64,000 bases of DNA from Mobula hypostoma (taxonomy: Eukaryota), in contig NC_086108.1 of assembly GCF_963921235.1 (NCBI RefSeq), positions 74,154,001-74,218,000 of the forward strand, read 5' to 3'. Positions 3,801-60,752 of the stretch are shown in pieces. The notes under the pieces are model-generated. The model did not search any database, was not told where the DNA came from, and saw only the letters and a list, made by a program, of their open reading frames with translations. Numbering within the stretch: the first letter of the stretch is position 1; the number at the start of each line of letters is the position of its first letter. The translations under genes were made by a program, and so were the position numbers.

Positions 3801-6800
3801 CTTGTTTCTCCACTTGATAAAGCAGGTAGGACCCACTTCCACATCTAATCTAGGAAACTGCACTGGGGTATCAAAGTTAATTTTTGTTCTTACCTTAGGG
3901 TAGTATAGGAACATGAGGCATCCAACAGACAAAAACACTTCAATCTGCTCATACACAGGAATTCTGCAGATGCTGGAAATTCAAGCAACACACATCAAAG
4001 TTGCTGGTGAACGCAGGAGGCCAGGCAGCATCTCTAGGAAGAGGTGCAGTCGACGTTTCAGGCCGAGACCCTTCGTCAGGACTAACTGAAGGAAGTGTGA
4101 GTAAAAGATTTCCAATCTGCTCATGCTGCAATGATCAAATATTTATATTTCAACAGGTATGCAGCTTGTAGGAATGATCGGACCTGTGTGAGAAACTGGC
4201 TCACTGATTGGGAATGGAACGATCAAGGAAATCACTGCAGAAATGAATGTGTTCCCTACCATGAGGTAAGAATAGTAGCATTATATAAATATGACCATTA
4301 GTAGTTTTTGGAGATAAATACAAATATACTTCAAAGGGGTAGAACTTGAATTGATTAATTATATTCATTGTTAGGCAGTACTCTTAGTTTGAAAATTTAA
4401 AAATTGTTCACACTGAAATTATGAACTAAAAAGCTAAAATGCTGGAAACTCAAGGTTAGGCAACAACTATGGACAGAGAAAGAGTCTTAACATTTCAGGT
4501 CAAGAATCATTTATCACAACCTTCTGTAACTCTTTCCAACTAAAAGTCTGCAGATTCTGGGTCAAGTGAAATATTGAAGATTGTGCTATTATTGTTAAAT
4601 AATGGTGTCAGGGCATATGGACCAAAGATAGATAAATGGAGTTAATGTGTAGAGCAATCACATTATTCTATTTGTTGCAGAAACCACTCAATTTTTATTT
4701 CCTTTCACCTATAGTTCAAAAATTGGGGAGCGATCAACTTTATTCTGTTCAGCAAGGAAAGCTTCAAGAGGAAAGGTTGTACATGTCCTTCTTTGTGATG
4801 GAGATACATTTGTAGATAGATAGATATGTCATCGATCCCAAAGGAAATTACAGTGTCACAGTACAAGTTCACAGATAAACAATATTAGAAGATTAGTAAG
4901 AAGAATAAATAAAAAATAAGTTATCTTGAATAGTCTAACAGGAGGGGATCATCACTTCCCTGGTTAGAGGTTGACTCATTATAGAGCCTATTAGAATGAC
5001 CTCATATAGCGCTCTTCGGAGCAGCGCAGCTGTCTTAGTCTATTACTGGAAGTGCTCTTCTGAACAGCCAAGGTGGCATGCAGAGGGAGAGGAATATTGT
5101 CCAGAATTGCCAGGATTTTCCATAGGGCCTTTTGTTCTATCACAGCCTCCAGTGTGTCCAGTTTGACTCCAATTACAGAGCCAGCCTTTCTAATCAGTTT
5201 ATTGAGCCTGTTGGCATCACCTGCGTTGATGCCATAGCCCCAGCACACTACCAATTAGAAGACTGTACTGGTGACAACAGACTGGAGAACATGCGTTAAG
5301 GTGCTGCTGCAATGGCCCAGGTGGGTAACTATAGTGCATTTTGTAAATGGTGCACAACTTCCAATAGTTTTGGAAGAAATATTGCCTCATGTGGTCTCAC
5401 CCTCCTGCCTTGGGCTTCGTAAATGGTCAAACAGCACTTATAGCATAGGAAGATGTGTTATCCATCTCAAAATACTCAGCCATTGACATACTGTTGTAGC
5501 CTTTGTATTAATGTGGCTGGCCGGATGTTTTTCATCAGTAGTGACCCTGAAGAATTTGGTGGCGTGTCTCAGAAATAAGGATGTAGTCAAACAGACTCTC
5601 TCTGTTTGGAGACGGACATTAACGGTACTTCTGTTGTACATGCCACATACTGACCGATGCCTGGATGTTTTGTAGGACTTGCTATACACAATCATCGATT
5701 ATTCCTTTTTTGAGATGTGAATGGTATTAAATATTATACAGTCTTTAGCAAACATCCTCACTTCTGACCTTATCATAGAAGGAAGGTTATCAATAAAGCA
5801 ACTGAAGAAGTTTCAGTTATGACATTGCCTTGCAGTTCCATAACTGACTTCAATTGACCACAACCACTTCCATTCAGTAACTCATCACCTTATTTGCTGC
5901 CACACTTGATCAAATACTGCCTTTATGTCAATGCGAATCATCTCACCTTACATCCAGAATTTAGTTCTCCCATCCATGCTTTGGCTATGGTTGTGATGTT
6001 ATCAGCAGATGATGAGACCCTGAAGAAACAGAATATACGTAGGTGACCCTCATCAGTCTTGATGAGATGCCTTGAGAACTTATACTTGATAGCACTGGTG
6101 ACACAATCTCGAGTCATTTTGCTGATTATTTTTGTAAACTTTTTGAGTGGCATTTAGCCAAAAATTGACTTGCCCTCCATTCTGGGGATTTGATTCTTCT
6201 GGGAATTTTTCCAGGCTATCTGCTGGAGACTGTTGTTACAAAATGCACTGAAACAACTTGCTTGATCTGTTCTTTTTTCTTCTGATAAGATTGCGGCTTG
6301 CTCATTCGCAGCAACCACTCCGGGTCCAATCAAAAATGTATTTGTTTGTCTTGAATGTCTTTTTTATGATTGTAAACTACTGCTGGATACTAAGAACATC
6401 AAGTACTACAAAACTATCCCATCAGCAAGTTGCTTGATAGTATGGAGCTGGACTTATGCCGTACTGTTGTTATGTTGTTGCCTGGGCTTGTTGCATACCG
6501 TTGTGCTGAGGTGATACACAATCTAACAAACTGAGTGAGTGGTTATCTTGTGCATTTTTATTGTGATCACAAGACCTTGTTGGACTTTGGTAACATAGAA
6601 TACTGCAAGTCCAGTTCATTGGTTCATTGGCAACACTGACGGTGAGGGAGCTGCAGTGCCTCAGTTGTGGCCAAGACTAGGCGGAAGCTGCCATGTCACC
6701 TATTGCAACCGCCCAGAGGAGGAGAGCCAAGGCGGGGTGGGGAGAGTGGGGACCTCTGTGGGGTGGACTGGAACTGATACGGGGTTGGGGTTGGCCCCAG

Positions 6801-9800
6801 CCATCAGTGTTGCTGTCTGGTATTCTCTCAGTGTTGCTCTCCAGTGTTCCGTCAGTGCTGGTCTCAGAGGAAGAACATGCTGGACCAGGGCAATCTAGTC
6901 ATGCCACTCAGGGACTTGGGCTATATTATTTTTCTTTCTCTGTGACTACATGTTTTTCTGAAATTGTAACTATATAATCTATTTGTTATGTAAGACCATA
7001 AGACAGAGGAACAGAATTAGGCCACCTGGCCCATCGAGTCTGCTCCGCCATTCAATCATGGCTGATTATTTTTTCTATCTCCTCCTCAACCCGTTACCGG
7101 CCTTCTCCCCGTAACCTTCGATGCCATGTCCAATCAAGAACTTATCAATCTCTGCCTGAAATACACCCAAAGACCTGGCCTCCACAGCTGCATGTGACAA
7201 CAAATTCCACAAATTCACCACCCTTTGGCTAAAGAAATTTCTCCACATCTCTGTTTTGAAAGGGCACCCCTCTATCCTGAGGCTGTGCCCTCTTGTCCTA
7301 GACTCTCCTTCCATGGGAAATATCCCTTCCACATCTACTCTGTCTGGGCCTTTCAACATTCGAAAGGTTTCAATGAGCTACCCCTCATCCTTCTGAATTC
7401 CGGTGAGTACAGACCCAGAGCCATTAAACATTCCTCATATAATAACCCATTCATTCCTGGAATCATCCTTGTGAACCTCCTCTGGACCCTCTCCAATGCC
7501 AGCACATCTTTTCTAAGTTGAGGGGCCCAAAACTGTTCAAAATACTCAAGCTGCAGCCTCACAAGTGCCTTATAAATCCTCAGCATCACATCCCTGCTCT
7601 TGTATTCTAGACCTCTTAATATGAATGCCAACAGGGCATTTCCCTTCCTCACCACCAACTCAACCTGCAAGTTAACCTTTAGGGTGTATGTAGTGTGCTC
7701 TTTGCTGTTGGCTGTGTGTTTTGCATCCTGGTCCCAAAGGAATGCTGTTTCTTTTGGCCATGTGCATGTGTAGCTGAATGATAATTAAATTTGAACTTGA
7801 ACTTTAGCTGGTGTTGGAGTGTCTTTGATGTATCTAGTGCATCTTGATTTCATGTCAAATTAATCAATATGGCTGAACACAGGCTTCTGTGATGACAAAG
7901 ATCACAGGAAGAAGCCGAGACTGATTCGCCAGTCGGTACTTCTGACTGAATATGATTGCAAGTGCTTTAGCTTTGTCTCCAGAAATCACACCTGGACATT
8001 CTACCCCATTCACGCAAGGTGTAACGCAAGTGCAGCTCTTTCATGCACGGTACTCTGTTGTCATGGGGTCACTTGCCTCTGTAAATCACATTACACACAC
8101 AAAATGCTGGAGGAACTCAATGGGCCAGGCAGCATCTATGGAAGAAAGTACAGTTGACGTTTCAGGCCAAGACCCTTCGGCAGGCTGTTTTTGCTGCTCA
8201 GCAAACATTCAGCCCTGAGTTACATTTTCACCCAGTTGGCATTTCACTTTGAGATAATCCAGAAAGTAAAAAAAAACACTGCACGAGAAAGTAGGTACAG
8301 CAGCCTCAGAACTCACACCATCAGGTTCAGCAACAGTTATTCCCCCTCAACCAACAGGCTCTTGAACAACAGGGGATAACAAATAAACTCTTTTTGGGCT
8401 TCAAGCCAGGTACAGGTATCAATTATAACTGACGTTTCAATGATATCAATTTATCTGCACTGTAGATAAAATTGTAGATGCTTGTTCACTGGATGTATGC
8501 TTAAGAGGCATTTTGTTAGTGTGCACCATGTGTTTTCTTCCGAAATTACTAATTGTAGTTAAAGTGGTGTTCCTGTAAGTACAAGGCTAAGCAACAGCTT
8601 CCATTGGAAAATACTGTTTTAAATGAAATTATCTGGCTACTCCTAACCCACGTAAATTTCTATTTTTCCCTACCAATTCTGCTTAGACTTATCGATTAGA
8701 ACCAAAATTTTGATGACAAACTCTGCCATCTTCTTCAGGGATAATGGCTGGGTATGTCTAGTCCAGTGGTATTTATACCCCAGGATTCTGTCCCTCCTGA
8801 TAGGTTAGTCTCAACCAATCAGGTTTCCACTCTATCACATTGTTTACAATCAACTTCCAGTTCTTACTCAGAGTGAGACTTTCATTGTTATTAAAACCTT
8901 TTCCTGTAGTTTTATTTCAATGGCTCCTTTCACCAGGTGGTCCCAAAAGCCTTTGGTGTGTCACAGTAGTTTTGTGCCATTGAAATCGGGACTGTTCACC
9001 TGCCAGCCCTCTCATCTCCTAGTGACTGGGAGTACATTGACATGTCCACCACTACCCAAGGTGAACTCATTTCATGAAGGAACACTGTGAAGCAGATCAA
9101 GAAATACAACAAACTATCCAAACAAAATGCAGCCACCCTACCATTGGACCCAGAAAGGATTGTCATCAATCAAAACGGGCAAAGCATTCACAAGGCGACT
9201 AGATTGGTCCTCGCCAAGGGGCTAAAATTCTCTCTGGTCCCCAGAGTTATACCTTAATGGGACTACATTGGCGGAGTAGAGCAAGCAATTCGAAAACTAC
9301 TACCAGATACCATGGAGGAGGTAAGGATAGAGGTCTGTATGGCCAGAAAAAGAGCCGTTTCGCCAAAACTGAACATTACATTCTAGGCACTATGGCAAAA
9401 CCAGCCATCATGATTTTACCAGCGGACAAAGAAAATGCAATGGTCCTGAGGTCCTCTGAGGAGTATCACGGGAAAATCCAATAGGTTCTGGACAATCCCA
9501 CCTACAGAGTTCTATAGCAGGATCCCACGGATTCAACTGTCAGGATGACCTGTACTTCACTGAAGAAATATGCAAGCCACTTCTGCTTCAGGTGCTGGCA
9601 CCACCAAGACTTTGGACATTATAGTCAGTTTCAACGTGGTGTCCTTGTTCACAAGGGTTCCCATCAAGGACAGCTTGGTTCTCCTGTGGTCAAGGTTTGA
9701 TAAGGGCACTATTGACCTTTTTGAATACACCCTTGCATCGATGTACTTCCTCTATAAGAGGAACTATGATGAACAAATGGACGCAGTGGCCATGGGGTCA

Positions 9801-12800
9801 CTTGTCATCGGCGTTTGCTAATTTCAACATGGAGGACTTTGAGAAGAAGGCTCCAAGTTCATTGCCTTTAAGCCTCAAATGCTTCTTCAGACATCTTCAC
9901 AGTGTGACCTCATGGACTCCAGGCACGACATTCCTACAGAATAGCTACAAAGTGAAGGAAATCACCTTAAAAGAGCTGACAGAAAAACCAGGAAACCTAA
10001 CAACTATTTCTACTGTTTCTAGAAGGATCATGAGGATCCTGAAGAAATACCAGATTAATACCATCCACAAACCTGTAAGGAAGCTCAAATCACAGCTTAT
10101 GTGGGTCAAAGATGACCTGGGACTCAGGTCGGCTGGTGTTTACAGGATACCCTGTGAATGCGGAGCAGCGTATATCGGCCAGACGGGACGCATGGTGCAA
10201 ACCTGCATTAAGGAGCATCGGAGGTGTATCCATTTTGGTTACCCAGAGAAATCAGCGATGGCCATAGGATTGACTTTGATGACACAAAACTACTGTGCCA
10301 CACCAATGGCCTTTGGAACCGCCTGGTAAAGGAAGCCATTGAAATAAAACTAGAGGAACAGAATTTTTAACAAAGGCGAAGTTCTCACTCTAAGTAACAA
10401 TTGGAATTTGATTGTAAACAAGGTGAGAAAGTAGAAACCTGACTAGATGAGGACTAACCTATCAGGAAGGACGGACTAAATACCACCGGATAGACATCCC
10501 TAGGCATCATCCCTGAAGAAGGTGGCAGAGTTCGTCATAGACATGTTGATTATAATCGATAATTGTACCCAGCTGGAAGTCTGAGAAGAGTTCATTCGTC
10601 ATATACGCCGGGAAAGCACTAGATTCTTTTTCAAAGGGGATAATTTCACTCAACTTCACTTGCCCTATCATTGAAATGTGCCCACAACCTATGGACTCAC
10701 TTTCAAAGACTCTTCACTTCATGTCCTCGATATTATTATTATTTCTTCCTTTTTGTACTTGCACACTGGTTGAATGCCCAAGTTGGTTGGGTCTTTCATT
10801 GATTCTGTTATGGTTATTCTTTGGATTTAACAAGAAAATGAATCTCAGGGTTGTTTTTGGTGACATTCATGTACTTTGATAATAAATCTACTTTATACCC
10901 TTGAACTTCAAAGAGAAGGATGCATTTGCTCCTTTCACCAGTTTAAAAAAGCTTTAACCAAGAACAAAGGTTGCAAGTGTCCGTAAGTTTGAGGCATCTT
11001 AGGGAAGCATTTATCAAGATGAGGCAGCTATCTTAGATATGCCCTCTAAACCAGAACTCCTTGAACATAGTTGCATTGTTTTGAAGTATTTTTCTTGGAA
11101 TCATTCCATTTCCAAGTAATATTTACATGTACGGTACATTCACACACGATCAGAATACTGTTCCAAGAAAGTTGCAATAACACTTAATTTCTGGAAATGT
11201 AGTTACACATTTAGAAAACATCTGTGAGAACATATTGTGTACAATAATTTTAGTTTGATGGCCCTTCCTTGTACTGTATGTATTTGATTGTTGTGGAGAA
11301 CCTCATTGCCAGGAAAATTACTTGTGGGATTCCACTAAAGCTATGCAGTACTGTACAGAATGATTAACTTTCTTACACTTGAGTGCAATTACTTCTGGTG
11401 AGATCCCAACATTTTAAAAAAATGAAAAATACAGATGTTCCAAGCAAGTACAAATATCCTATTGACATTATCTGGGCCAGATGGACTTTGAACATATGAA
11501 AGCTAGCCAAAACTGTTAACTAGGATTTATGTTGCACTTCATGACAAGATATGTCCCAGTTGCACGATCTTTATAGGTCCATGGAGAGAACAGTTGCAAA
11601 GACACAAGTCAAAAATATCAATGTTTACACCAGAAGCAGTCGTGAAAGCAAGTCGTGAAAGCAAGTCATCCTTAATCTCAAAAGGCAGATAAAAGTAAAA
11701 AGATTATCTTGTTCATTTGCAGCTTAATATTTTAAACCATTAAAAATCCATGCATATTAATCATTTACCTGTAATTGTTAAAAGGGCATGCTGATTAAGT
11801 ATGTTTGTGAACCAAGATTCCTGCACAAATCACTTAGGCTTCCCATTTAGCACCATAAGATGTATTTATTCACTATCCCTATGCTTTCTGTAACCACAAA
11901 CCTTGTTAATGATGGCTCATCTGCCTTCAGTATTGTTTCCAGCAGGACTCTTTTACTTAGGAGCCCAAGCATGGAAGTAAAAAAAAGATTAGTTTTAGTC
12001 CTCAAAAGGATAGAATACTATTGTTGTTATTTTACTCCATATTTGAGGAGAAAATTGAAATCAAATACCAGACAGGAGGAATTCTGCAGATGCTGGAAAT
12101 TCAAGCAACACACATCAAAGTTGCTGGTGAACGCAGCAGGCCAGGCAGCATCTCTAGGAAGAGGTACAGTCTCGGCCTGAAATGTCGACTGTACCTCTTC
12201 CTAGAGATGCTGCCTGGCCTGCTGCGTTCACCAGCAACTTTGATGTGTGTTGATCAAATACCAGGGTTTTCTTTCCATGGAGTTACATTAACTTTCTACA
12301 TGTGAAATAATGGCGCTAATGCTGACTTTGGTTCACTGTTTCTCAGTTTATTTTCAAAGTGATCTGTCATTTTTTTTTGCGCCCTGTAGGAATTTCACAC
12401 AAAGGATTGCTTACAGAATAATATGAGTGTATTTCAAATTAATTAACTATTTGTAAAGTTGTTGGCACTTTTCTGAAAGTATAATCAGGCATTATATATA
12501 TGTAGGCCTTTATCTGTTTCCTTATTCCTTTTTTTTAGTGTCATAGAAAACCACAGCACAGAAATATGCCCCTCAGCCCATCTAGACCTCCATATCCCAC
12601 CCATCCATGTAGCTATCCAAGGATGCCTTCTTTATTACCCTTTCTACTTCTGCTGCACTTTCAAGGAGCCATGGATAGAGCACCCCAAGATCCTTCTGCA
12701 CATCAATGATCCGAAGCTACGTACTGTGTACTTTCCTCTTACATTTGATTTCCCAACATTTCAAACTTGTTTGTATTAATGCACATGGAAATTATAAATG

Positions 12801-13081
12801 ATTTTATATATAATAAACTGTTGAATATGATGCTGAAACTACTCATTAACAATCAAATAATTCTTTGTGTGCAGATGTATAGGAATGGAAGGGACTTCTG
12901 TGAGAGCATTTGGGGTACATCTCTGAAAGTGGCTTCATGCCCTTGTCACTGTCTGATGCTGGATGATGATGATAACAATGTGGTCCAGCACTTGCAGTCC
13001 CACAGCGAAGAAACGTCAGACTGCACAGAAACATCCAGACAGAGATGCTTTTTGTCAGCAGCGGCAGGGGGGTCTGCATGA
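757..13081 (+). CDS. RBP: Riboflavin-binding protein-like (RfBP/folate receptor family), 3' part: join(757..885,4157..4265,12875..13081); 5' exons lie upstream of the window
   Basis: The spliced product CEEYMKKVDCFYYCSP...VPVCKSFCDDW/YAACRNDRTCVRNWLTDWEWNDQGNHCRNECVPYHE/MYRNGRDFCESIWGTSLKV...CHC aligns by eye with chicken RfBP as recalled (CEDFTKKIECFYRCSP...LCQSFCDDWYEACKDDSICAHNWLTDW...HCKSKCVPYSEMYANGTDMCQSMWG). All junctions are AG/GT with compatible phases. No GPI-type hydrophobic tail. Confidence 0.88.
1503..2700 (-). mobile_element. 5'-truncated, frameshifted CR1 LINE (RT C-terminal half and 3' UTR)
   Basis: ORFs 2116-2472 and 1556-2155 (GPLFVVYINDLD, KFVDDTK, YCVQFWS, RRLRGDLIE, FFTHRVV). 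Confidence 0.9.
3950..4110 (-). mobile_element. Short Penelope-LTR-derived repeat carrying a hammerhead ribozyme
   Basis: Same unit as the terminal repeat of the Penelope element at 18067-18170; near-identical to the copy at 12072-12171. Confidence 0.8.
4047..4084 (-). ncRNA. Minimal type I hammerhead ribozyme motif (GUC cleavage triplet)
   Basis: Minus strand reads UAGUC-CUGACGA-A-GGG-ucucgg-CCU-GAAAC-GUC-GACUG. It has stem I, the CUGAnGA core, stem II, GAAA, palindromic ACGU stem III and an NUH triplet. Confidence 0.75.
4157..4265 (+). CDS. RBP: RfBP-like internal exon (109 nt, phase 2-0)
   Basis: caacag|G TAT GCA GCT TGT...CAT GAG|gtaag; encodes (W)YAACRNDRTCVRNWLTDW...HCRNECVPYHE. Not present in the ORF track. 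Confidence 0.9.
4813..5300 (-). mobile_element. Rex1/Babar-like LINE 3' fragment with (TATC)n tail
   Basis: ORF 4991-5254 (VVCWG...RLNKLIRKAGSVIG...HPL...RLRQLRC..RY.RSF). The same 3' end recurs at 28270-28505. Confidence 0.7.
6993..7685 (-). mobile_element. CR1 LINE 3' fragment
   Basis: ORFs 7353-7670 and 7075-7359 (ALVR..LEY..QFWAP, TRGHSL, FFSQRVVNLWN); short-repeat tail. Confidence 0.9.
8094..8184 (-). mobile_element. Penelope-derived short repeat with mutated hammerhead core
   Basis: Minus strand CTGCCGAAGGGTCTTGGCCTGAAACGTCAACTG; core CUGA is changed to CUGC. Confidence 0.7.
8285..10905 (+). mobile_element. Rex1/Babar-like LINE 3' end split by a Penelope insertion (pieces 8285-8379 and 10635-10905)
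   Basis: RYSSLRTHTIRFSNSY.PST.RLLN remnant; the 3' UTR resumes after the duplicated AGGGGATAA. Confidence 0.7.
8380..10634 (+). mobile_element. Penelope-like element (Poseidon-type), decayed, with inverted 5' pseudo-LTR and 9-bp TSD
   Basis: Remnants VLAKGLKF, ILPADK, SFNVVSLFTRVP, AMGS and GIY-YIG GVYRIPCECGAAYIGQTGR...KEH. 8386-8987 is the reverse complement of about 10270-10595. AGGGGATAA occurs at 8371-8379 and 10635-10643. Confidence 0.85.
12072..12252. mobile_element. Palindromic dimer of the Penelope-derived hammerhead repeat, 12-bp TSD
   Basis: Perfect 66-bp inverted arms 12106-12171 and 12187-12252 with a 15-nt loop. ATCAAATACCAG occurs at 12060-12071 and 12253-12264. Confidence 0.9.
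12875..13081 (+). CDS. RBP: RfBP-like last coding exon
   Basis: tgtgcag|ATG TAT AGG AAT GGA...; MYRNGRDFCESIWGTSLKVASCPCHCLMLDDDDNNVVQHLQSHSEETSDCTETSRQRC...*. Confidence 0.88.
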   Translation: MYRNGRDFCESIWGTSLKVASCPCHCLMLDDDDNNVVQHLQSHSEETSDCTETSRQRCFLSAAAGGSA

Positions 13082-16090: not shown

Positions 16091-18124
16091 ATTTCTTTTT
16101 ATTTTTCCACTGACATATAGCTATCTCTTGCCAGATAGTTAAGACATATACTTTCCCTGATGTGTATGTATGAAAATGAGACAGAAGGTAGACTGCTTAA
16201 TATCAAAAAGAAACAATTCCTATTGTTTTATGTTACTGCAGAATGCAGGTTTACTCTATATTTTATTATGTGCTGTCTGCAGGATGTGCATAGCTAGACT
16301 TCAATGAAGGTGGCAAAGAAGTAATTTGAAAATCTATCAGCTCGCTTTTCAACTGCAACATTTGGCGTACTTTCAGCAAAGAATTTGAAGCAGTTCTGAG
16401 GGGAATCTGGGCCATTATGTTAATTGATAAGATTTTAAAAAGTACTGTGAATGTTAGAAACTTGAAATGAAAGCAAAAATTGCTGTAAGTAATAAACAGA
16501 TGAGGTAGCATTGGTGCAGAGAGAAAATGGGTTCTCATTTCAATTCATTCACTATGTTGAAACTTTAACTCTGTTTCTCACTCCACACATGCTTTTTGAG
16601 TTGCTGACTGCTTCTGGCTTCCTGTGGTTTTGTTTATGACAGTCAACAACATTTTAAAGTGATTTATTTTGATTTAGTTCATAGGTTAATAGAAGCAATG
16701 GCTGAACTATCTTTGCTCATTCAGTGAGTTAGCAGAGAATCACTTCTGAACTTGGCAATTTTCAAGCAACTATTATGGCAATTTGTTGACCTTAAATTGG
16801 GATATAATTGAGACATTAATTCACAGCTTTCTTCTGGACTTATACTTCCTGAGTCAAAGCATGCTTTTGATTACTTTTATTAAATTTGTACAAGATTGAC
16901 TGAGACCTTAATCAAAGTTATTCATATCTTTAACTTACAGCATAGAAGATCTGAGGACATTCCTATCCAGGAAATTTTTTGAAAAATCAAGAATAATGGT
17001 TTGAAAAATGTAACATTTCTACCATCAAATAAACAAAGTCAAGAAAAACTTTTTACTTTATTGACTCTTTGATTATTACATTTTACTTTCCCCAAGCAGT
17101 AAGGCTGAACAACACCTCCACCCACTAACTCACCCCACTACTTTATCATTTCCCGACAGTCATCTTATGTACAGACACTCCTGTACCTAGCTTCACTTTA
17201 TGTTCATACAATCAATGTATATATACAAACTTGCATATTTATTTTTAATGCATTTTTCTAAATTATTGTGTTTTTATCTTATTGTTTTTTTATGCTGCAT
17301 CAGATCCGGAGTAAAAATTATTTTGTTCTCATTTACACTTGTGTACTGGAAATGACATTAAACAATCTTGAATCTTAAACAATTTCAACATATTGCTCAC
17401 CTTAGACACTCACCCAGTCCTGAATTCATCCAAAAATCTGCTGCCTGCATCAGGTTTCACCACTGCGCTTCCCAGCTAACACTGATCAGAACGTAGAACA
17501 TAGAAAATCTACAGCACGTTACAGGCCCTTCGGTCCACAATGTTGTGCCCACCATGTAACCCACTCTAGAAGTTGCCTACAATTTTCCTACCACTTAGTG
17601 CCCTATTTTACTAGGCTCCATGTACCTCTCTAAGAGTCTCTTAAAAGACACTATTGTATCTGCCTCTACCACCTTCGCTGGCGGCCCATTCCACACACCC
17701 ACCACTCTCTGTGTGGAAAAACTTACCTCTGACATCCCCCCTTCCACCCACTTCCAAGCACCTTAAAACTATGACCCCTCGTGTTAACCATTTCAGCCCT
17801 GGGAAAGAGCCACTGACTATCCACACGATCAATGCCTCTCATCATCTCATACACCTCTGTCAGGTCACCTCTCATCCTCCATCGCTCCAAGAAGAAAAGG
17901 CCAAGTCCACTCAACCTATTCTCATAAGGCATGACCCCCCGCCCCCAATCCAGGCAACATCCTTGTAAATCTCCTCTGCAACCTTTCTATGGTTTCCACA
18001 CCCTTCCTGTAGTGAGGCGACCAGAACTGAGCACAGTACTCCAAGTGGAGTCTGACCAGGGTCCTAGCAACACTCACAAAACGCTGGAGGAACTCCGCAG
18101 TTCGGGCAGCATCCGTGGAAACGA

Positions 18125-18164
18125 TCAGTCAACGTTTCGGGCCGGAACCCTTCGTCAGGACTGA
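18125..18164 (-). ncRNA. Minimal type I hammerhead ribozyme motif in the Penelope terminal repeat (GUU triplet)
   Basis: Minus strand UCAGUC-CUGACGA-A-GGG-uuccgg-CCC-GAAAC-GUU-GACUGA; perfect 6-bp stem I and 3-bp stem II. Confidence 0.75.
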
Positions 18165-18991
18165 AGAGGGAAGGGGCAGAGGCCCTATAAAGAAGGTGGG
18201 GGGAGGGTGGAAGGAGAAGGCTGGTAGGTTCCAGGTGAAAAACCAGTAAGGGGAAAGATAAAGGGGTGGGGGAGGGGAAGCAGAGAGGTGATGGGCAGGA
18301 AAGGTGAAGAAGGAATAGGGGAAAACACAATGGGTAGTAGAAGGAGGCGGAACCATGAGAAAGGTGATAGGCAGCTAGGGGAGGGGGCAGAGTGAAATAG
18401 GGATAGGGGAAGGGAGGGGGAGGGAATCACCGGAAGTTGGAGAATTCTATGTTCATACCAAGGGGCTGGAGACTACCTAGACGGTATATGAGGTGTTGCT
18501 CCTCCAACCTGAGTTTGGCCTCATCATGGCAGTAGAGGAGGCCACGTATGGACATATCCGAATGGGAATGGGAAGCAGAGTTGAAGTGGGTGGCTACCGG
18601 GAGATCCTGTCTGTTGTGGCAGATGGAGTGGAGGTGCTCGACGAAGCGGTCCCCCAATCTGCGTCGGGTTTCACAGATGTAGAGGAGGCCGCACCGGGAG
18701 ACCGGATGCAATAGATGACCCCAACAGACTCACAAGTGAAGTGTTGCCTCACTTGGAAGGACTGTTTGGGGCCCTGAATGGTGGCAAGAGAGGAGGTGTA
18801 GGGACAGGTGTAGCACTTACGCTTACAGGGATAAGTGCTGGGTGGGAGATCCGTGGGGAGGGACCTGTGGATCAGGGAGTCGCGGAGGGACCGATCCCTG
18901 CAGAAAGCGGAGAGGGGTGGAGAGGGAAAGATGTGCTTAGTGGTGGAGTCCTGTTGAAGGTGGCGGAAGCTGTGGAGGATAATGTGCTGGA

Positions 18992-19131
18992 TGTGATGTA
19001 TTGTGTGAGTATTCGTAGCGTCAAGAGTGCGTATGACGTCAGGACTTGGAAAAGGGTTTTAAAAATGGAAGTCTGGTGAATAAACAGGGTTGTTCAATCT
19101 ACAGCGGTGTCCGAGTCACATCAATATTACA
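18992..19131 (+). repeat. Gypsy 5' LTR (140 bp)
   Basis: TGTGATG...ATTACA; differs from the 3' LTR by 4 substitutions and 1 indel; contains TGACGTCA (19034-19041) and AATAAA. Confidence 0.95.
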
Positions 19132-19143
19132 TGGTGTCAGAAG
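19132..19143 (+). other. Primer-binding site, tRNA-Leu type
   Basis: TGGTGTCAGAAG directly after the LTR is complementary to the recalled tRNA-Leu(CAA) 3' end ...CUUCUGACACCA. Confidence 0.8.
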
Positions 19144-22100
19144 AAAAAGCGAAAAATAAAAAGGAAGAGAAGACACGTAAAAGATGTCACAGTTACAGAT
19201 ACTGTAGCCTACAAGGTAAATCTTGCTGAAAACTGGAAAATATGGATCCAGAAGTTTGAGCTGTTTTGCACCGCTAGCAGCCTAGCTGAAAAGACGGAGA
19301 AAGTGCAATGTAATGTCGGCAGAAGCATTCAACTCACTGGACATCAGAGGAAGACTGGAAAAATCCACCTGCAAGCTTGTTGCATATTTCGGCCACGAGA
19401 TGGCGCCACTGGGCAAAAAAGCACTCACCTGTGTATACTAAGGTAAAAAATACAAGATCGAGTTTGAAATAGTACAACAACATGTTTCAGCAATACTGGG
19501 CAAAGCAACATGCACAAAGCTAGGCCTGGTGAAGCAAATCTATGGTGTTAAAAAAGAAAATTACATTCTCAAAGACTTTGATGACTTGTTTTCTGGATAA
19601 GGATGTTTACCAGGAAAACACCATATCAAGATTGATCCAACTATTTCACCAGTCGTGCATGCCCCGAGAAAGATTCCAGTAGCTCTCAGGGATCAAGTAG
19701 TGGAGGAGCTACACAGAATGGAACAGATGGGAGTCATAACAAGACAAATAGAACCGACCGACTGGGTGAATAGTATGGTGACAGTGGTCACAGAAAAAAA
19801 GACGAGGATTTGCATGGATCCACAAGATCTCAACCAAGCCACCAAAAGAGAGCACTATCCGCTGCTCACGGTTGAAGAGGTTGTCTCCCGCATGCCTAAT
19901 GCAAAATACTTTTCAGTATTAGACGCAAATCAAGGCTTCTGGCAGATCAAGCTGGATGAAGAAAGTTCCAAATTATGCACTTTCAACACGCCCATAGGGA
20001 GATATCATTTCCTGCATCTACCCTTTGGGATTTCTTCTGCATCAGAGGTATTCCAGAGATCCGTGGCACAAATGATTGAAGACCTGGACGGGGTGGTCAG
20101 CATCATTGATGATTTGCTGATATGGGGTGACACAAATGAGGAACATGATCAGAGACTGAGGAAGCTCCTGGAGAGAGCACATGAGTACAGCCTAAAACTG
20201 AACAAAAGTAAATGTAAGATCAGAACTACAGAGATCAAATACATAGCTCAGCGCTGATGGGCTAAAACCAGATGATGAAAAGGTCAGAGCTGTGGTACAG
20301 CTACCACCACCCAAAGACAAGCAAGGTTCATGGGCATGCTACAGTATCTTGCCAAATTCATTCCCAACTTATCAGAGGTCAGCGCTCCACTCCGAAAGCT
20401 ACTAGAGAGCAACACTGAATGGCATTGGGAAGACAAACAAAAGAAAAGTTTTGACACATTGAAGCAGTTGGTTATCAATGTACCAGCACTCAAGTTCTAT
20501 GATGTCAATAAACCGGTGACAATGTCTGTGGATGCCAGTTCGCAGGGAATAGGAGCTGTTATACTGCAGGATGGGAGGCCTGTGGCATATGGATCACGAG
20601 CACTTACGCTCAAATCTAGAAGGAATTACTTGCCATAATTCATGGGTGTGAGAAATTCCACCAATATGTATATGGCAAAGAAATCCAGGTTGAGAGTGAT
20701 CATAAACCACTTGACAGCATCTTCAAAAAGCCACTCCACCAAGCTCCTATGAGACTGCAAAGGATGCTTCTCAGGCTACAGAGGTACACGCTCACAGTCA
20801 CCTAGAAGCCAGGAAAAGAACTGCACATTGCTGATGCTGTGAGCTGTGCTTACCTCAAAGAGCAAAAGGAAGAGTTGCTAGGAAGAGAGCTGGAGGTCAA
20901 CTGGGTTACACCTCAGCTACCCATCTCTGAGAAGAAGTTGAACATGTTCAGGAAAGCGACTGCAGATGATCCTGAAATGCGAATGCTAAGAGACATTACA
21001 ATGAATGGATGGCCAGCAGAAAGAAAAGATGTTCCAAAGGAAATACAGAAACACTGGACATTTAAAGAGGAAATCAGCTATGCATCAGGACTAATGTTTA
21101 AAACGGCAAAGCTCATCATACCAAACCAAATGAGACAGGAAATGCTTAACAAAATTCATGAGTCACACCTGGGGATAGTGAAATGTAAAGAAAGAGCAAG
21201 GGACATTCTCTATTGGCCAGGCATGTCAACTCAGATAGAGGACATTGTGTGTCAGTGTGCTGTCTGTAATGAAAACAAAAACAGCAATCCAAGAGAGCCT
21301 CTGCTTCCCCATCCACTACCAGGAAGACCACAGGATAAGAATGGCACAGATCTCTTTCACTACAATGGTACAGAATATCTGCTTTGTGTGGACTACTATT
21401 CAAAATATCCGGAGATCACCAAGTTAAATCCAGTCGAGGTGTCATTACCACAATGAAGTCGACATTCGCAAGACATGGTATTCCAGATATTGTCGTTAGT
21501 GACAATGGTCCACAATATGCCAGTGGTGAGTTCAGAGGGTTCTCAGAAAGCTGGGAATTTCAACATGTTACTTGCAGTCCAGGGCACACCCAGTCTAATG
21601 GACAAGCAGAGAGAACTGTACAAACTGTCAAGAACATGCTCAAGAAGGCACATAGAGCAACGGTGACCCTTGCATTGCTCTGCTTGAATACCACAACACA
21701 CCGATTGAGGGTGTGGGGTTCTGTCCTGCGCACCTGTTGACGGGACGTCATCTGAAGTCCAAACTGCCAACATCCACAACTCTACTGACTCCTGAAGGTA
21801 ATGCTCAAGTACAGGACAAGCAGAAGTACAAGCAAATAAAGCAAAAGAGCTACTATGACTGACATACAAGACAGTTGCCAGATCTGCATACAGGTGAAAA
21901 TGTCAGAATACAGAGAGGAGACACTTGGCAACCAGCTGTGGTTGTGAACAGACATCAGCAACCAAGATCCTTCATAGTTCACACGCCGGATGGAGGAGTC
22001 TACAGGAGGAACAGGAAGCATCTGCTGAAGACAGGCGAGAGGGTGTTTCCACGTACAGATGCACAGGACATTTCCACAGATACAGACATGGAAACAAACG

Positions 22101-22433
22101 ACACCAAGAGTGATGCAGACCACAGAGAGACAGAGGCCACTCAAGAGACTGACACGGATGAAGGACAAACACAGTCACAGTTGTATCACACACGGTCTGG
22201 GAGACAAGTCAAACGTCCAGCTAGATACAGAGACTAATGAAAGGTTTATTAGTCTATGTTAGTAAAAGAAAATACACTGCTGTTAGTATTGTAAGATACA
22301 ATGCAGAATACAGTACAGGAAGGTAAGATTTTTTTTTAGTTTATGTCATAGTTGTTGCACTGTAAGAAGGGCACACCTAGAGGCATTGTTTTGGTAATTC
22401 ACAGTTTTGTAAAGAAAATCTTGAGAAGGGGGA

Positions 22434-22572
22434 TGTAATGTATTGTGTGAGTATTCGTAGCGTCAGAGTGCGTATGGCGTCAGGACGTGGAAAAGGGTTT
22501 TAAAAATGGAAGTCTGGTGAATAAACGGGGTTGTTCAATCTACAGCGGTGTCCGAGTCACATCAATATTACA
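22434..22572 (+). repeat. Gypsy 3' LTR (139 bp) preceded by polypurine tract
   Basis: GAGAAGGGGGA (22423-22433), then TGTAATG...ATTACA. Confidence 0.95.
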
Positions 22573-23669: not shown

Positions 23670-25470
23670 TAAATTTCCAGTTCAAATTTATTGTCACTCA
23701 ACTGTACACATGTACACCGCCAAAGAAACAATGTTCCTCTGACCCAAGGAGCTCAGCCCTAGATATAACTTACACACAAGACATAAAGTAATATTACCAC
23801 AAAAAATTAACAAATAGTATGGTGCACTTACGACACAAGTTAAAAACTAAACGGCATGGCTATACTGGCACTTCATACACGATGAAACCTAAGTGGTGGC
23901 AGGGACTTCAGTGATCTCACAGCCTGGGGGAAAAACGTGTTTCCCATCCTAACAGTTGTTCTAACGCTATGGTACCTCCTGTCTGATGGTAGGATGTCAA
24001 ACAGATTGTGAGGCAGTGACGAGTGGGGTACCGCAAGGCTCAGTGCTAGGACCCCAGTTGTTTACAAATATTAATGACTTAGACGAGGGAATTAAATGCA
24101 GCCTCTCCAAATTTGCGGATGACACGAAGCTGGGCGGCAGTGTTAGCTATGAGGAGGATGCTAAGAGGATGCAGGGTGACTTGGATAGGTTGGGTGAGTG
24201 GGCAAATTCATGGCAGATGCAATTTAATGTGGATAAATGTGAGGTTATCTACTTTGGTGGCAAGAACAGGAAAACAGATTATTTTCTGAATGGTGGCCGA
24301 TTAGGAAAAGGGGAGGTGCAACGAGACCTGGGTGTCATTGTACACCAGTCATTGAAAGTGGGCATGCAGGTGCAGCAGGCAGTGAAAAAGGCGAATGGTA
24401 TGCTGGCATTCATAGCAAGAGGATTTGAGTACAGGAGCAGGGAGGTACTACTGCAGTTGTACAAGGCCTTGGTGAGACCACACCTGGAGTATTGTGTGCA
24501 GTTTTGGTCCCCTAATCTGAGGAAAGACATTCTTGCCATAGAGGGAGTACAAAGAAGGTTCACCAGGTTGATTCCTGGGATGGCAGGACTTTCATATGAT
24601 GAAAGACTGGATCGGCTGGGCTTATATTCTCTGGAATTTAGAAGATTGAGGGGGGATCTGATTGAAACGTATAAAATTCTAAAGGGATTGGACAGGCTAG
24701 TTGCAGGAAAATTGTTCCCGATGTTGGGGAAGTCCAGAACGAGGGGTCACAGTTTGAGGATAAAGGGGAAGCCTTTTAGGACCGAGATGAGGAAAAACTT
24801 CTTCACACAGAGAGTGGTGAATCTGTGGAATTCTCTGCCACAGGAAACAGTTGAGGCCAGTTCATTGGCTATATTTAAGAGGGAGTTAGATATGGCCTTT
24901 GTGGCTAAAGGGATCATTGGGTGTGGAGAGAAGACAGGTACAGGGTTTTGAGTTGGATGATCAGCCATGATCATACTGAATGGCGGAGCAGGCTCGAAGG
25001 GCCGAATGGCCTACTCCTGCACCTATTTTCTATGTTTCTATGTGAGGAATCATTAACAATGCTAAGAGGTCTGTGTACACAGCGCTCTTAATAAATTATT
25101 TTGGTAGGGGAAAGAGAGACCCCAGTAATCCTCTCAGAAATCCTATGTAGGGTCTTGCAGTCAGATGCTTTGCAATTCCCATACCAGACGGTGTTGCAGC
25201 TGGTCAGGACACTCTTGATGGTGCTCCTGTAAAAATTGGCTAGAAAAGGGGAGGCAAGGGAGAGGAGTCTCCCTTGCCTCAATCTTCTCAGCACGTGGAG
25301 ACACTGCTGTGGTTTCTTGACTAAAGAGGTGCTGTTGAGGGACAAGGTGAGATCATTCGCTATATGCAGTCCCAGAAACTTGCTGCTTCGAACTCCTAAC
25401 TCTCTCCACGGAGGAGCCATTTATGTATAGTGAGGAGTGGTCAGCCTGCACCTTCCTAAAGTCCATAATC
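23670..25470 (-). mobile_element. Rex1/Babar-like LINE fragment split by a CR1 (pieces about 23670-24013 and 25041-25470)
   Basis: ORF 25088-25420 (KFLGLHI..DL, KKPQQCLH.LRRLR, NFYRSTI.SVLT.C.TVWYG). TGTGAGG is duplicated at 24007-24013 and 25041-25047. Confidence 0.75.
24011..25040 (+). mobile_element. Young 5'-truncated CR1 LINE (open RT C-terminal ORF)
   Basis: ORF 23986-24951 is open through SGVPQGSVLGP, KFADDTK and the C-terminus; (TTCTATGT) tail; same subfamily as 57084-60752. Confidence 0.95.
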
Positions 25471-27517: not shown

Positions 27518-30500
27518 GTTGGTACTTGAAGAGATGGTGTTCAGTCGCTTCACAGATGAAAGCTGTTGGCAATGTTCATTGGTTTGGGGAAGGAAAACAG
27601 TAGCGCTGTCAGCATGGGAAAGAGAAGATTCGAGCGCAAATTGTAGGAGAATTTCAAACTTAAAATCCTTCTGTTTAATCAAACTTCTGGTCACATTCTT
27701 TATTTTCATATCTTTGGTTGTTTGGATTAGTAGTCCGTTGCAGGCAGCTGTGTGGTATTAACTCAATAAAGTTACAACACAGGACTCCCTTTAATGTCAA
27801 ACATTGACCAACATGATCAAAATCTGTGTTGCAAAAGGGCAATTATTTGTGGAGTGTACGTTTAAGAGATGTGGATGAATTAGTAAACTAAAGTGTGAGT
27901 GGGTTTCAAGTTTCCCATAATCGTGACCTGTTTATTCTCTAGTCAATGATTTCAGTGCAGTCAACAATAGAAATTAAAATCCGGCATTGGATCCCAACAA
28001 CAGGTCAAGTAGTGATCAAGGGCTGTACTGCCATCATCAGTGTAATGAGTAATAGTATGCACTATTCAAAGGATATTCCTCAACAATGTGCTGGCTTACT
28101 TTGACACGCTTCCCTTTCCGGTCATCTGTATTAACAGGAATAACGACTAGCAGTATCATTAGAGTTATCTCCAAGTTGTCATTCTTATTGGACATATTGA
28201 TCAGCATTCACTTTTAATCTAAATTCCTTCTGGTGATAACATTCTGGGAGCCCACCACCACTTTAGGTCAGATAAGATAGATAGATGGATAGATAACTTA
28301 TTGACCCCAATGGAAATTGCAGTGTCACAGTAGCATTACAAATGCACAGATATACAAATATTAGAAGGGAAATAAGAAAGAATAGAAAATATGTTTACCT
28401 CAAACAGTCTAACAGGAGGGGTCATCAACTTGGCTGTAGGTTGACTCATTATAGAGCCTAATGGCCGAGGGTAAGAATGACCTCATAGAGCACTCTTTGG
28501 AGCAGCACCTTTGCTCAGAAATGATTAAAATCAAATCTTTGATTGTTCCACTGAACTGTTAATTATTATTTTTCACTAATATACCAATAAACATGAGGGA
28601 TATATTAACTGATACACAATGAATTTCAATAAGCGCAGTATATGCTAATGTCTGTCCATTCAATGTCTACAATTAAAACAAAGTGATTTACAGTAGAGCA
28701 ACTGGATTTGCATCCTTCCATTTGGAAGGCCTATCAGAGTGAACCTGGAGTAGAGTCTTCTATTTTGCAAAGAAGAGAAAATCTGCAGATGCTGGAAATC
28801 CAAGCAACATACACAAAATGCTGGAGGAACTCAGCAAGCCAGACAGTATCTATTGAAAAGGGTAAACAATGGACACTTTGGGTGGGTCTCGGCCCAAAAT
28901 ATCAATTTTTTTTTACTTTTTTTTACATTGATGCTGCCTGAGCTGCTGAGTTTCTCCAGCATTTTGTGTGTGTTTGTTCTATGAGTATTGACATCGAAAC
29001 TTTACCCTCACAACAGACTATTGTAAGCTTCAAATACAAGACCTTAATTTGCACTTTCTTTTGTTTACTTTGTCCGCAGGTGTCATCAATGTCAGCATAA
29101 AAAATGTACAAGAATTGATCCTTGCTGCAGATATGTTACAGTTGACTGAGATTGTGAACATGTGTAGTGAATTTTTAAAAGGACAAATTGATCCCTCGAA
29201 CTGTGTTGGAATTTACCAATTTGCTGAGCAAATTGCCTGCCATGACCTTGTGGAATTCAGTGAAAGTTACATTTATGTCCACTTCTTGGAGGTCTGTAAA
29301 ACTGAAGAGTTTATGGGATTAGCAAAAGATCAATTGGTTAAAATTTTAAAAAGTGAAGAACTCCAGATTGAAGATGAATATCAAGTTTTCACAGCTGCAA
29401 TGGAATGGGTTCTCCAGGACATGGTGAAAAGGAAAAAATATGTGATTGAAGTTCTGGATCCTGTTCGATTCCCTTTGCTTTCTTCGCGGAGATTATTCAA
29501 ATATATTGAAGGTATTGTATGAATTTGAGTATTTTGTATTTCCTAGCTGATGTTGCTGATCTTTTCACAATAACATTCAGAAAAGAAACATGATAAATGT
29601 GGAAGTTGTTGTGCACAAATTGTTTGCTGTATTACCCAAAACATAATTAGAGATTATGTCTAATGTGTGGATTCTTCACATTTAAATTTACACAGATTTC
29701 AAAGGAATATATTTTTCTAGAGCTCTTCACACACTGGTGCTTTGGAAAATTATGGTTTGTTGCAGACCACAGAGCTCTTAATCATATGATACGATTATTA
29801 AATAAATAGTTTTCCTATAGAAATAATTATTGTTCACAATCTACATTGCATACTACTTTCCACTTTCATTTTGGATCTTCTTACTGGTATGGTTTCCATT
29901 ACACTGAACTTGCAAATTCCCCACGTGTTGTTAGAATGGGTTGAACTCCAGACCCATGATATTCTCTCATCATTGCTATTGTCAACAATATCACAGGTTG
30001 ACTTCTCTTAACCCTTTGTTGTTAAATTATGCTACTATACCACACCTTGCTGGGAAATTTAAGTTCTTGTGTGAGCTCAAATACCATCTATAAATTTGCT
30101 GATGATATAACCATTGTTGGTAGAACCTCAAATGGAGACAAGAGGGGCTACAGGAGTGAGATATACCAACTAGTGGAGTGATGTCACAGCAACAACCTTG
30201 CATTCAATGTCAGTAAGACGAAAGAGCTGATTGTGGACTTCAGGAAGGGTAAGGCAAAGGAACACATACCAATCATCATAGAGGAATCAGAAGTGGAGAG
30301 TGTGAGCAATTTCAAATTCCTGGGTGTCAGGATCTCTGAGGACCTAACCTGGTCTGGTCCCAGCATATAGATGCAGCTATAAAAAAGGCAAGACAGCAAC
30401 TATACTTCATTAGGAGCTTGAAAAGATTTGGTATGTCAACAAAAACACTCTGAAACTTATATAGGTGTACCGTGGAGAGCTTTCTGACAGGCTGCAACAC

Positions 30501-54831: not shown

Positions 54832-57178
54832 ATTGAGTCCTGGATGCCTGCAGAAATGAAATCAAATCTTCATCTGTCTCTGCATTTGAATATTATTATT
54901 CTCCAGTTAAAAAGAAAGATGGTTAGAAAATTAAATGGAGTGGGTTCATAATTATTGGTAATAAGAATTAACTCGATGGATTCCTGTAGCTTTAAACACT
55001 TTGATTTTGGATTACTGATGTTACTGTATGTTTCTATAAATAAAACTTAGCTTCCTTTGGCCCAATGGCTCCTGAGCTCACCCTATTTGCCTGCATTTGG
55101 TCTGTATTCTTCTAAACCAGTGGTTCCAAAAGGGGGCGATATCACCCTGCTTGGGGGGGGGGGGCAGGGATTGATAAAGATAAAGGGTCCAGTGAGGGGG
55201 GCACTCGTAGCAAGGAGGGTAGCTAATTTAATTTAAGAAATTAGTTCCTTATTTTAAGTATTTGATCCTCAGTGCCTCATAAATAACTACAATGTTCATG
55301 TAATCATCTCATCTCTTGCTAACCCACTGTTCTCTGAGACTTTGCTCAAAACGCATTATAGTTGTTGAAAAGCAATGTGACACTTCTGTATTTGGCATAT
55401 CATGGGAAATCTGGACCGAAGAAATCATTCTACTTCTGGGCTGGGCCCGCACATTATTGCTGTTCACCACTGTAGTACAGTGTCAACTAGAACGATTTCC
55501 ATACCAAATCACACAGTGACATAACTCCTGTAATTTAGGGTATGGCATTCAATGGGATAAAGTTCAGAATCTGTCCTTTCAGTTGGTCTTGACCACATCT
55601 GAAGGCTTCTTGAATATTTGAAGAGAATACACTCTGATAAAGCAAACAAAAACTTGGCTTATTTTCAGTCACTTTGTGAAAACTTTCAGATTCAGAAGTC
55701 ACTTCAAAACATAACAATGATGATTTGTGTGCTTCATACAACATTTCAATTTCGTTGCTAAATATGGAAAATCCCATACAATTGAAGAACCGATTCTACC
55801 GGCAGTAAGGGAGGTTCTGAGTATGGTTTTGCAAAAGTCACCAGACCAAATAATTAAAGCGATTCCACTCAGCGACAACTCTGTTCAACGATGAATAATG
55901 AAATACCTGAGAATGTGGAAAACACATTGTGCACCATATTTAGGACAACAGAATTTGCTCTGCAGTTGGATGAGCCAACTTTGCCAGGGAACAAATCTTC
56001 ACTTCTTGGTTACTCTTGCTTCATAAAAGATGAAAGCATGATTCAAGAGTTGTTATTTGCAAGGAGACAAGAAACTGATACAGAGGGGGAGTCAAGATTT
56101 CGGGTTGTTAAACAAATTTTCAAAGAGGAGGATATTCCTCTCACCAGCATTCTTATCATTAATGGTTTCTCATTGGTTGCACAAACAAGACACCACCGTG
56201 GGGTTATTACTTTCTTGAAAACAGTTGTATCTAACATATTTACCATTCCGTGTAATTCACAGACTACACTGTGTCGCAAAAATCCTAAGTGATCAGTTAC
56301 ACAAATCATTAAATACTGTTATCACAGTGGTAATTAGAATCAAGACCTATGCTCTCATTCTTGACTATTTTGAGAGCTTTGTACTGAAAATGATGAACTG
56401 TTTGCATGCTTGCTGTGGCACACGGAAGTCAGATGGCTCTCAAAAAGGAAAAGGAGCTGCATTTTTTGAAACTATAATAAAATTCTTTGAAGACTTGAAT
56501 GAATTCAGTCTTCAATTGCAAGGATACAATGTGAATTTTATCAAAGTCAAATCAGTTGTCTCCACATTTCTGTCTCAGTTAACCCTATTTAAGTGCAACA
56601 TTGGTCATTGCAACCCTTGCCAATTTCTGAGCCTCTCTGAGTTGTAAGAGAAAAAAAATACCAAATGATGATCTTGAAGTATACTGTGCCCGCCTGGGTG
56701 AGCTGCATAAAGACAAATAAGAGAGATATCAGGATCTTCTCTCAATCTAAATTCCAGATTGAGTAAAAAAAATCCCATTCTCAACACTTGAAATGAAAAA
56801 TTAACAGGAAGGAATGAGGGAGAACCAATCTCACTACAAAATGACATTGAGCTGAATCAGAGGTTCAAAAACTCATCTCAAGACTTTTGGTTGCAGAAAG
56901 AAATCTCTGAACTATCCTACACTGTGGAAAAAGGTCAAAATGTTTCCTATTGCCTTTCTAACAACGTATTTAGTTGAACCCAGTTCCAGTGCAGTCACTC
57001 AACTTCTTGCAAAGCAACAAAACAAACCACAAATTACTGAACATAGGGATATGAGACTCTTGGGTAGCATTGCACCTGATGTTAAAACATAGAAACATAG
57101 AAAATAGGTGCAGGAGTAGGCCATTTGGCCCTCTGAGCCTGCACCACCATTTATTATGATCATGGCTGATCATCCAAC

Positions 57179-60100: not shown

Positions 60101-60213
60101 TTTGCTTCTACCCTCACTTTACACCCCTCTGTCTCTCTGCACTGGTTCCCATCCCCCTGTTGTGAACTAACCTCCTCTCGCCTAGCCTCTTTAATTTGAT
60201 TCCCACCCCCCAA
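57179..60213 (-). pseudogene. CR1 ORF2 (APE endonuclease + reverse transcriptase) with one frameshift
   Basis: GITETW, VYRPP, MGDFN, SDHN, KSPGPDG, LDFQKAFD, PQGSVLGP, FADDTK. The frame breaks at the G8 run (57475-57482) and resumes in ORF 57179-57442. Confidence 0.92.
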
Positions 60214-60218
60214 CCATT

Positions 60219-60752
60219 CTAGTTTAAAGTCACCTCAGTAGCCCTCGCTAATCTCCCTGCCAGGATATTGGTCCCCCTAGGATTCAAGTGTAACCCGTCC
60301 TTTTTGTACAGGTCACACCTGCGCCAAAAGAGGTCCCAATGATCCAAAAACTTGAATCCCTGCCTCCTGCTCCAATCCCTCAGCCACGCATTTATCCTCC
60401 ACCTCATCGCATTCCTATTCTCACTGTCGCGTGGCACAGGCAGTAATCCCGAGATTACTACCTTTGCAGTCCTTTTTCTCAACTCCCTTCCTAGCTCCCT
60501 ATATTCTCCTTTCAGGACCTCTTCCCTTTTCCTACCTATGTCATTGGTACCTATATGTACCACGACCTCTGGCTCCTCACCCTCCCACTTCAGGATATCT
60601 TGAACATGATCAGAAATATCCCGGACCCTGGCACCAGGGAGGCAAACTACCATCCGGGTCTCTGGACTGCATCCACAGAATCACCTATCTGACCCCCTTA
60701 CTATCGAGTCCCCTATCACAACTGCCCTCCTCTTCCTTCCCCTACCCTTCTG
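60219..60752 (-). pseudogene. CR1 ORF1 C-terminal SGNH/GDSL esterase domain, one in-frame stop
   Basis: VVIGDSIVRG (block I), LPGA, HIGTND (block III), DGLHLN (block V); TGA after GSDR. Confidence 0.88.

Follow-up and report, generated by a model that had tools for sequence, protein, structure and literature searches.

A 181-bp head-to-head insertion of a Penelope-like element in a riboflavin-binding protein intron of Mobula hypostoma, with one arm starting at the hammerhead cut site

The window analysed here is a stretch of 64,000 nucleotides from Mobula hypostoma (NCBI RefSeq assembly GCF_963921235.1, contig NC_086108.1, positions 74,154,001 to 74,218,000, forward strand), and all coordinates below count from its first letter. 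Identified by its exon matches, the host gene is RfBP: for the exon at 4157-4265, riboflavin-binding protein 6hce_A scores first (E 1.5e-10) and Juno next (3.7e-4), and the exon from 12875 carries on the Pfam Folate_rec profile where the first leaves it (positions 104-141, then 142-171). The intron between these exons contains a palindromic insertion, with 610 nt separating it from the 3' splice site. The features of the locus are as follows.

4266 to 12874, + strand: RfBP intron containing the insertion (GT/AG ends read; exon identity)
12060 to 12071, no strand: target-site duplication, left copy, 12 bp
12072 to 12171, - strand: left arm, a Penelope-like 3' end that begins directly after the GUC triplet and includes the whole tail; 97.9% identity to the sister copy (3957-4051) over 95 nt, offset 0
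12072 to 12105, - strand: 34-nt tail, present in the left arm only (arm comparison)
12169 to 12171, no strand: 3-nt microhomology, common to both arms (arm comparison)
12169 to 12252, + strand: right arm, from hammerhead stem II (offset -18) through the cut site (12186/12187) to a tail-less 3' end; 96.4% identity to 3986-4069 over 84 nt
12172 to 12186, + strand: 15-nt loop, corresponding to the hammerhead 3' half (part of stem II, GAAA and the triplet; comparison with the sister copy)
12253 to 12264, no strand: target-site duplication, right copy, 12 bp

The insert proper spans 12072-12252, and its arms are exact reverse complements over 66 bp (12106-12171 and 12187-12252). Judged from the alignments, both arms are 3' ends of Penelope-like elements, set head to head and pointing outward. 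A sequence-only reading of this DNA had already described Penelope-derived head-to-head copies pairing over 66 bp without a mismatch around a 15-nt loop, and the arm comparison confirms them. The 181-bp insertion within a perfect 12-bp duplication was likewise recovered, upholding a single insertion event; the left copy does begin directly after the GUC triplet, at offset 0 relative to the sister-copy core (4052-4079), and the breakpoint is indeed ambiguous by 3 nt, which belong to either arm. Two features had been overlooked, namely the 34-nt one-sided tail and the passage of the right arm across the cut site. At its 3' end, the right arm stops at the equivalent of sister-copy position 3986. 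The loop lacks the CUGACGA half of the hammerhead and differs from the sister copy by one CpG-type change, which in the right arm would weaken a dimer helix III. Neither arm holds a whole ribozyme: the arms are 84-100 nt long and contain no ORF, and the entire insertion is one hairpin, with a predicted fold of -148.5 kcal/mol (z -20.25) that none of 200 shuffles equalled.

Such a duplex would form in the RfBP pre-mRNA, and a stem of this length would suffice for ADAR. The earlier claim of a long dsRNA stem inside the RfBP intron is upheld in both location and duplex by the exon matches and the fold; the intronic duplex is real, but every inverted pair of this kind forms one. Since the + strand holds only half a ribozyme, the RfBP transcript is not expected to cut itself at the insert.

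A blast search of the window with the insert returned one near-identical sister copy and several older copies. Three further loci of the family are needed below.

3953 to 4112, - strand: sister copy of the same young subfamily, with a complete minimal hammerhead (core 4052-4079); reference for all offsets
18066 to 19058, - strand: older-subfamily copy associated with an endonuclease frame of GIY-YIG type, frameshifted and bearing a C-X3-C-X2-C linker (Neptune type; read by eye, same strand as the hammerhead)
28775 to 28974, no strand: older head-to-head pair of the same family, with the same one-sided tail and inner ends at -11 and -20, in stem II (alignment)

The sister copy is bounded by its own 12-bp duplication (3941-3952 and 4113-4124); it lies antisense to RfBP and ends 32 nt upstream of an exon's 3' splice site. 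Its hammerhead has a short helix I, one extra base before a short stem II of 4 bp, and a palindromic, loop-less helix III. Matches to the hammerhead core number two in the window against 0.02 expected, while an Rfam search of the window gave no hit at the gathering score and the fold of the ribozyme monomer and tail is unexceptional (z 0.08).

The family looks like a Neptune-type, endonuclease-bearing Penelope-like element, an assignment taken from the frame of the older copy and not from the insert. That copy shares 75% identity over 101 nt at 18066, directly downstream of the GIY-YIG frame, and its C-X3-C-X2-C linker agrees with the CX2-5CxxC motif between RT and endonuclease that marks Neptune in the cited passages of PMC8557442. 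A Pfam search with three decayed element frames gave no hits, and a 24-base family pattern had no match in metagenome, viral and prokaryote contigs. Endonuclease-bearing Penelope-like insertions typically show, in the same passages, an inverted 5'-truncated copy beside the 5' end and, on one side, a tail of 30-40 bp (PMC8557442). The GIY-YIG frame was found here at the level of the family and the hammerhead motif as its 3' half only in the insert, which itself has the inverted 5'-truncated neighbour, the one-end tail (34 nt) and a short duplication (12 bp). Two other classes were rejected: a non-LTR retrozyme, whose definition calls for two or more tandem units with an entire type I hammerhead apiece, because the units here are inverted and neither motif is whole; and a MITE or DNA transposon, which would have symmetric terminal inverted repeats, because the ends differ by 34 nt and single-armed copies of the same sequence exist.

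The window holds other repeats. The Neptune-type copy is split by an LTR-type retrotransposon (~19000-22570), itself decayed, whose two terminal repeats are direct, and two inverted LINE copies, 93-95% alike and 32 kb apart, lie at 23965-25043 and 57087-60234, the second retaining a 921-aa frame. The decayed pair at 28775-28974 lies within an intron of a kelch/BTB gene. The RfBP intron also holds an older inverted pair of 290 bp from a different, Poseidon-like family (8689-8980 against 10279-10562, 80% identical), whose inner ends fall about 270 nt and >1.5 kb upstream of its hammerhead-like motif; the Poseidon-like element itself (8689-10630) has an inverted partial copy at its 5' end and a decayed hammerhead-like motif from 10513.

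The position of 5' ends relative to the cut is central to the interpretation, and the sequence-only reading had proposed plotting them against the GUH site. Within the window, this check gave no concentration: nine of the ten aligned family 5' ends run past the cut and one lies on it, a distribution with which a small excess at the cut is still compatible. The nine passing ends have offsets of -18, -11, -20, -21, -29, about -28 to -34 and about -60, and two lie beyond the aligned part, where they continue into longer element sequence. Five of the ten copies (1080-31241) have 5' ends at -11 to -29 and a sixth at -28 to -34. In this small sample, the ends cluster within the hammerhead core or at its border, as they might if the reverse transcriptase stalled at the folded ribozyme. 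The three head-to-head pairs of the window have inner ends at 0, -18, -11, -20, about -270 and >1.5 kb upstream, so that one of six is on the cut; for the left arm of the 28-kb pair, local alignment placed the 5' end at +6 and realignment to two older copies at -11, which is the value used.

How often an arm would reach the cut by chance was estimated in two ways. In a null of microhomology alone, all maximal inverted matches of at least 3 nt in the sister copy were listed as ordered joins; those with an arm exactly at the cut made up 4/114 (offsets -58 to +40), 4/39 (-35 to +15) and 2/20 (-30 to +5), which means that joins guided by microhomology alone would reach the cut 3.5-10% of the time. 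Just two pairings place an arm at the cut; the observed one (0, -18) is among them, and the other has its partner at -32. With uniformly distributed ends, an exact cut-site match is expected in 2-6% of cases, and in 8-22% within the 3-nt ambiguity. Both estimates apply to a case picked post hoc from a very large family (71,983 contigs aligned in X3).

Contigs of four species (runs X3, X7, X12 and X13) were aligned to the sister-copy region 3908-4147 at 90% likeness. At 3955/3957, the 3' (priming) ends pile up in both X3 (200 and 259 contigs) and X7 (124 and 218), and X7 has a further 75 at 3984; in these counts, identical junctions collapse to one contig and X3 is under-counted. The positions of the piles agree with two start sites that bound the tail. 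No loose end at 4051/4052, the cut, was present among the 24 listed of 633, a listing not selected by count alone. Loose ends at 3994, 4047, 4049 and 4083 were attributed to subfamily divergence, since their consensus letters continue as an older-type element. Summed depth, which cannot rank parts of the element, shows no drop across the cut (9.85 to 10.51 million in X3, 3.68 to 3.78 million in X7, with rises in X12 and X13) and falls only from 4076 on. Among the six listed joints that lead back to the 3' part, one leaves exactly at 4051 (X3, 4051 to 4014; 12 listed of 61, strand not given). Strand-change joints were absent from the 15 listed of 28, including any of the type expected from the 12-kb locus. 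Fourteen 'skip' joints (left side 3977-4012, right side 4027-4066) were set aside as probable older subfamilies with a middle part of <90% identity. As weak evidence, the contig data speak against the cut as the usual 5' end; an excess of a few percent is compatible with them. The CpG-type change of the loop is common in the family, at 7.9% of summed depth in X3. Separately, seven of 27 listed joints, in organisms A, C and D, lead from 4082-4094, adjoining stem I on its upstream side, back to the region of the cut at 4046-4055 (strand missing for six). In some copies, the ribozyme core of 35-45 nt thus seems to have been duplicated locally, and a doubled core could provide a dimer in cis.

By the standards of the window, the insertion is young. 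The 66 identical pairs set a 95% upper bound on arm divergence of 4.4%, or 3.8% when the duplication is included, and because the bound is this high, the 'very recent' origin claimed in the sequence-only reading does not follow from them. The sister copy and the left arm differ at 2/95 sites. In organism B, one contig (record 32, 4076-4147) spans the 5' junction of the sister copy, in a stretch that shares 61% of its words with the window (about 98.4% identity by crude conversion); a copy of the young subfamily therefore predates that split. A single contig from organism C, of equal depth, takes in the two flanks of the sister copy, consistent with an empty site.

We consider the most probable origin of the insert, at roughly 0.7, to be an ordinary head-to-head integration of a Neptune-type Penelope-like element whose arms were joined by a 3-nt inverted match. 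Both target strands would have been cut 12 nt apart, as the duplication suggests. Reverse transcription may then have begun from each freed end at a different internal start site of the element, from the left end at the tail site and from the right end 34 nt further in. Since the right arm has no tail to copy, the left end was primed separately. A head-to-head repeat needs either two opposite cDNAs or a cDNA that copies itself, and a self-copying cDNA would come without the tail, which points to priming from both target ends. Both cDNAs would then have stopped early, in or near the hammerhead, and been joined at the 3-nt inverted match (GTC/GAC). Either their ends would have annealed to each other or the right cDNA would have folded back on itself, with fill-in afterwards; from one locus, these two routes cannot be told apart. 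A pure fold-back of the right arm as the full account was rejected, since it cannot supply the tail. The exact position of the left arm counts against an ordinary join, which the microhomology null would place at the cut in so few cases. The turn nevertheless probably falls there without any cut in the RNA, because the nucleotides that follow the cut make up one strand of stem I and have short inverted partners inside the ribozyme.

An alternative, which we regard as unlikely, is that the hammerhead cleaved itself and the 3' product served as template for the left cDNA, which ran off at the 5'-OH and annealed by its last three bases to the end of a right cDNA made from uncut RNA. Under either reading, the template of the right arm was uncut, as shown by the loop, which is part of that arm, crosses the cut and runs in element sense on the + strand. 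The exact offset 0 of the left arm, the one listed contig joint leaving at 4051 and the complete hammerhead core of the sister copy all argue for a cleaved template, as do, in the parts cited, the R2 ribozyme, which cuts at the precise 5' junction (PMC3774820), and minimal hammerheads, which cleave weakly as dimers in vitro (PMC4209133). Two RNAs in a dimeric complex could, speculatively, supply the dimer that a minimal hammerhead needs. The loop change weakening dimer helix III would fit a right-arm template that stayed uncut because it was impaired, but the same change is a common CpG-type variant. Against cleavage stand the nine of ten window ends that pass the cut, the lack of a visible contig pile-up there, a breakpoint ambiguous by 3 nt and the post hoc choice of the case from a very high-copy family. 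In the cited passages on the Anolis element, moreover, ribozyme mutants inserted unchanged in vitro and no RNA-seq reads started or ended at the cut (PMC11167929).

The sequence-only reading had interpreted the junction as a footprint of ribozyme cleavage followed by template switching of the RT. The first part is not borne out: it is a single case, its partner arm and most ends of the window cross the cut, the null reaches the cut in 3.5-10% of joins, and contig ends do not accumulate there. The second part fails on strand logic, as run-off from a cut RNA and a jump to a second sense RNA would yield a direct, head-to-tail repeat instead of an inverted one. That a minority of Penelope-like RNAs is cut in the germline and reverse-transcribed, leaving a small genome-wide excess at the cut and, in this insert, pairing a cut with an uncut template, is doubtful on the present evidence.

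Two other explanations fare worse. A later microhomology-mediated deletion may have removed a longer centre of an unstable palindrome and left the present junction, and both the 3-nt microhomology and the frequency of such deletions in rotifer Penelope copies (in the part cited of PMC3846280) would agree with this. We consider it very unlikely: no longer allele is known, a shorter loop would make the palindrome less stable rather than more, and the second small pair (28775-28974) likewise turns inside the hammerhead, as early stops predict. A fold-back artefact of sequencing or assembly, suggested by the perfect arms and by the absence of the strand-change joint from the 15 listed of 28 (aligned on the sister copy, not the 12-kb site), is scarcely credible, given that a read fold-back mirrors all the way out and can make neither a 12-bp direct duplication bordered on either side by unique intron sequence nor a 34-nt tail on one arm, and that an older, decayed pair shows the same layout.

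The architecture of the insert is already published; a footprint of cleavage, unsupported here, would be novel. In the cited passages on rotifers, head-to-head is the most frequent arrangement and self-priming at junction palindromes has been proposed; in Pen2a_Av of Adineta vaga, the tail measures 31 bp and the duplication 9 bp, and the inverted junction overlaps by 15 bp (PMC3846280). The insert resembles such insertions in its inverted 5'-truncated neighbour, one-sided tail, short duplication and junction overlap, and differs from them in arms of only 84-100 nt, the lack of an ORF and the single hairpin that makes up the whole insertion. The descriptions of inverted insertions in the cited passages of PMC3846280 and PMC8557442 do not map the turn against the hammerhead. 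Nor did the titles and abstract openings searched, a scope outside which subscription journals fell, contain a mapping of Penelope-like 5' ends to the hammerhead cut.

The closest biochemical parallel is PAc, a Poseidon element of Anolis carolinensis. According to the cited passages, its tail in vitro is the stretch between two RT start sites, both target strands are cut and extended, the ribozyme is not needed and uncut RNA is the main template (PMC11167929). By analogy, the insert would share with PAc two internal RT start sites defining the tail, cutting and extension of both target strands, and a hammerhead near the start sites. PAc belongs to the Poseidon clade and is known from in vitro data, whereas the ray family looks Neptune type and is known from sequence. 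The joining of two arms was not reconstituted for PAc, nor is it shown for any such element in the passages cited from PMC11167929, PMC8557442 and PMC3846280.

Minimal hammerheads, in the part cited of PMC4209133, cleave weakly and only as dimers or with added helix III, and pairs of hammerhead motifs on opposite strands, 100-700 bp apart, were noted earlier in metazoan Penelope-like elements. The sister copy has the short helix I, the extra base before stem II and the palindromic, loop-less helix III of the metazoan minimal hammerheads described there. Unlike the schistosome families, with a stem II of 7-8 bp (PMC4209133), the present hammerhead has one of 4 bp, and neither arm holds a whole ribozyme. 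A cut-site start, if systematic, would bear on whether and why animal Penelope-like hammerheads cleave in vivo; germline cleavage, if true, would be in vivo evidence of working ribozymes, which is absent from the cited passages of PMC11167929, PMC8557442 and PMC4209133. The idea of the sequence-only reading recalls R2, whose HDV-like 5' ribozyme makes a cut that sets the 5' end of the inserted copy; in R2, the ribozyme sits at the 5' end and fixes the junction (PMC3774820, in the part cited), whereas the hammerhead here is close to the 3' end and is crossed by nearly all copies.

The insert is the shortest form of the known head-to-head pattern, in which a single event displays the two start sites of the element, and the abundance of the family makes the cut-site question testable by counting ends in an assembly. 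In L1 twin priming, both target ends prime different parts of one RNA, microhomology joins the cDNA ends, and the 5' part is inverted. The insert is like it in the priming from both ends, the microhomology join and the inversion, and unlike it in that the arms copy the same stretch and the asymmetric tail marks two fixed start sites.
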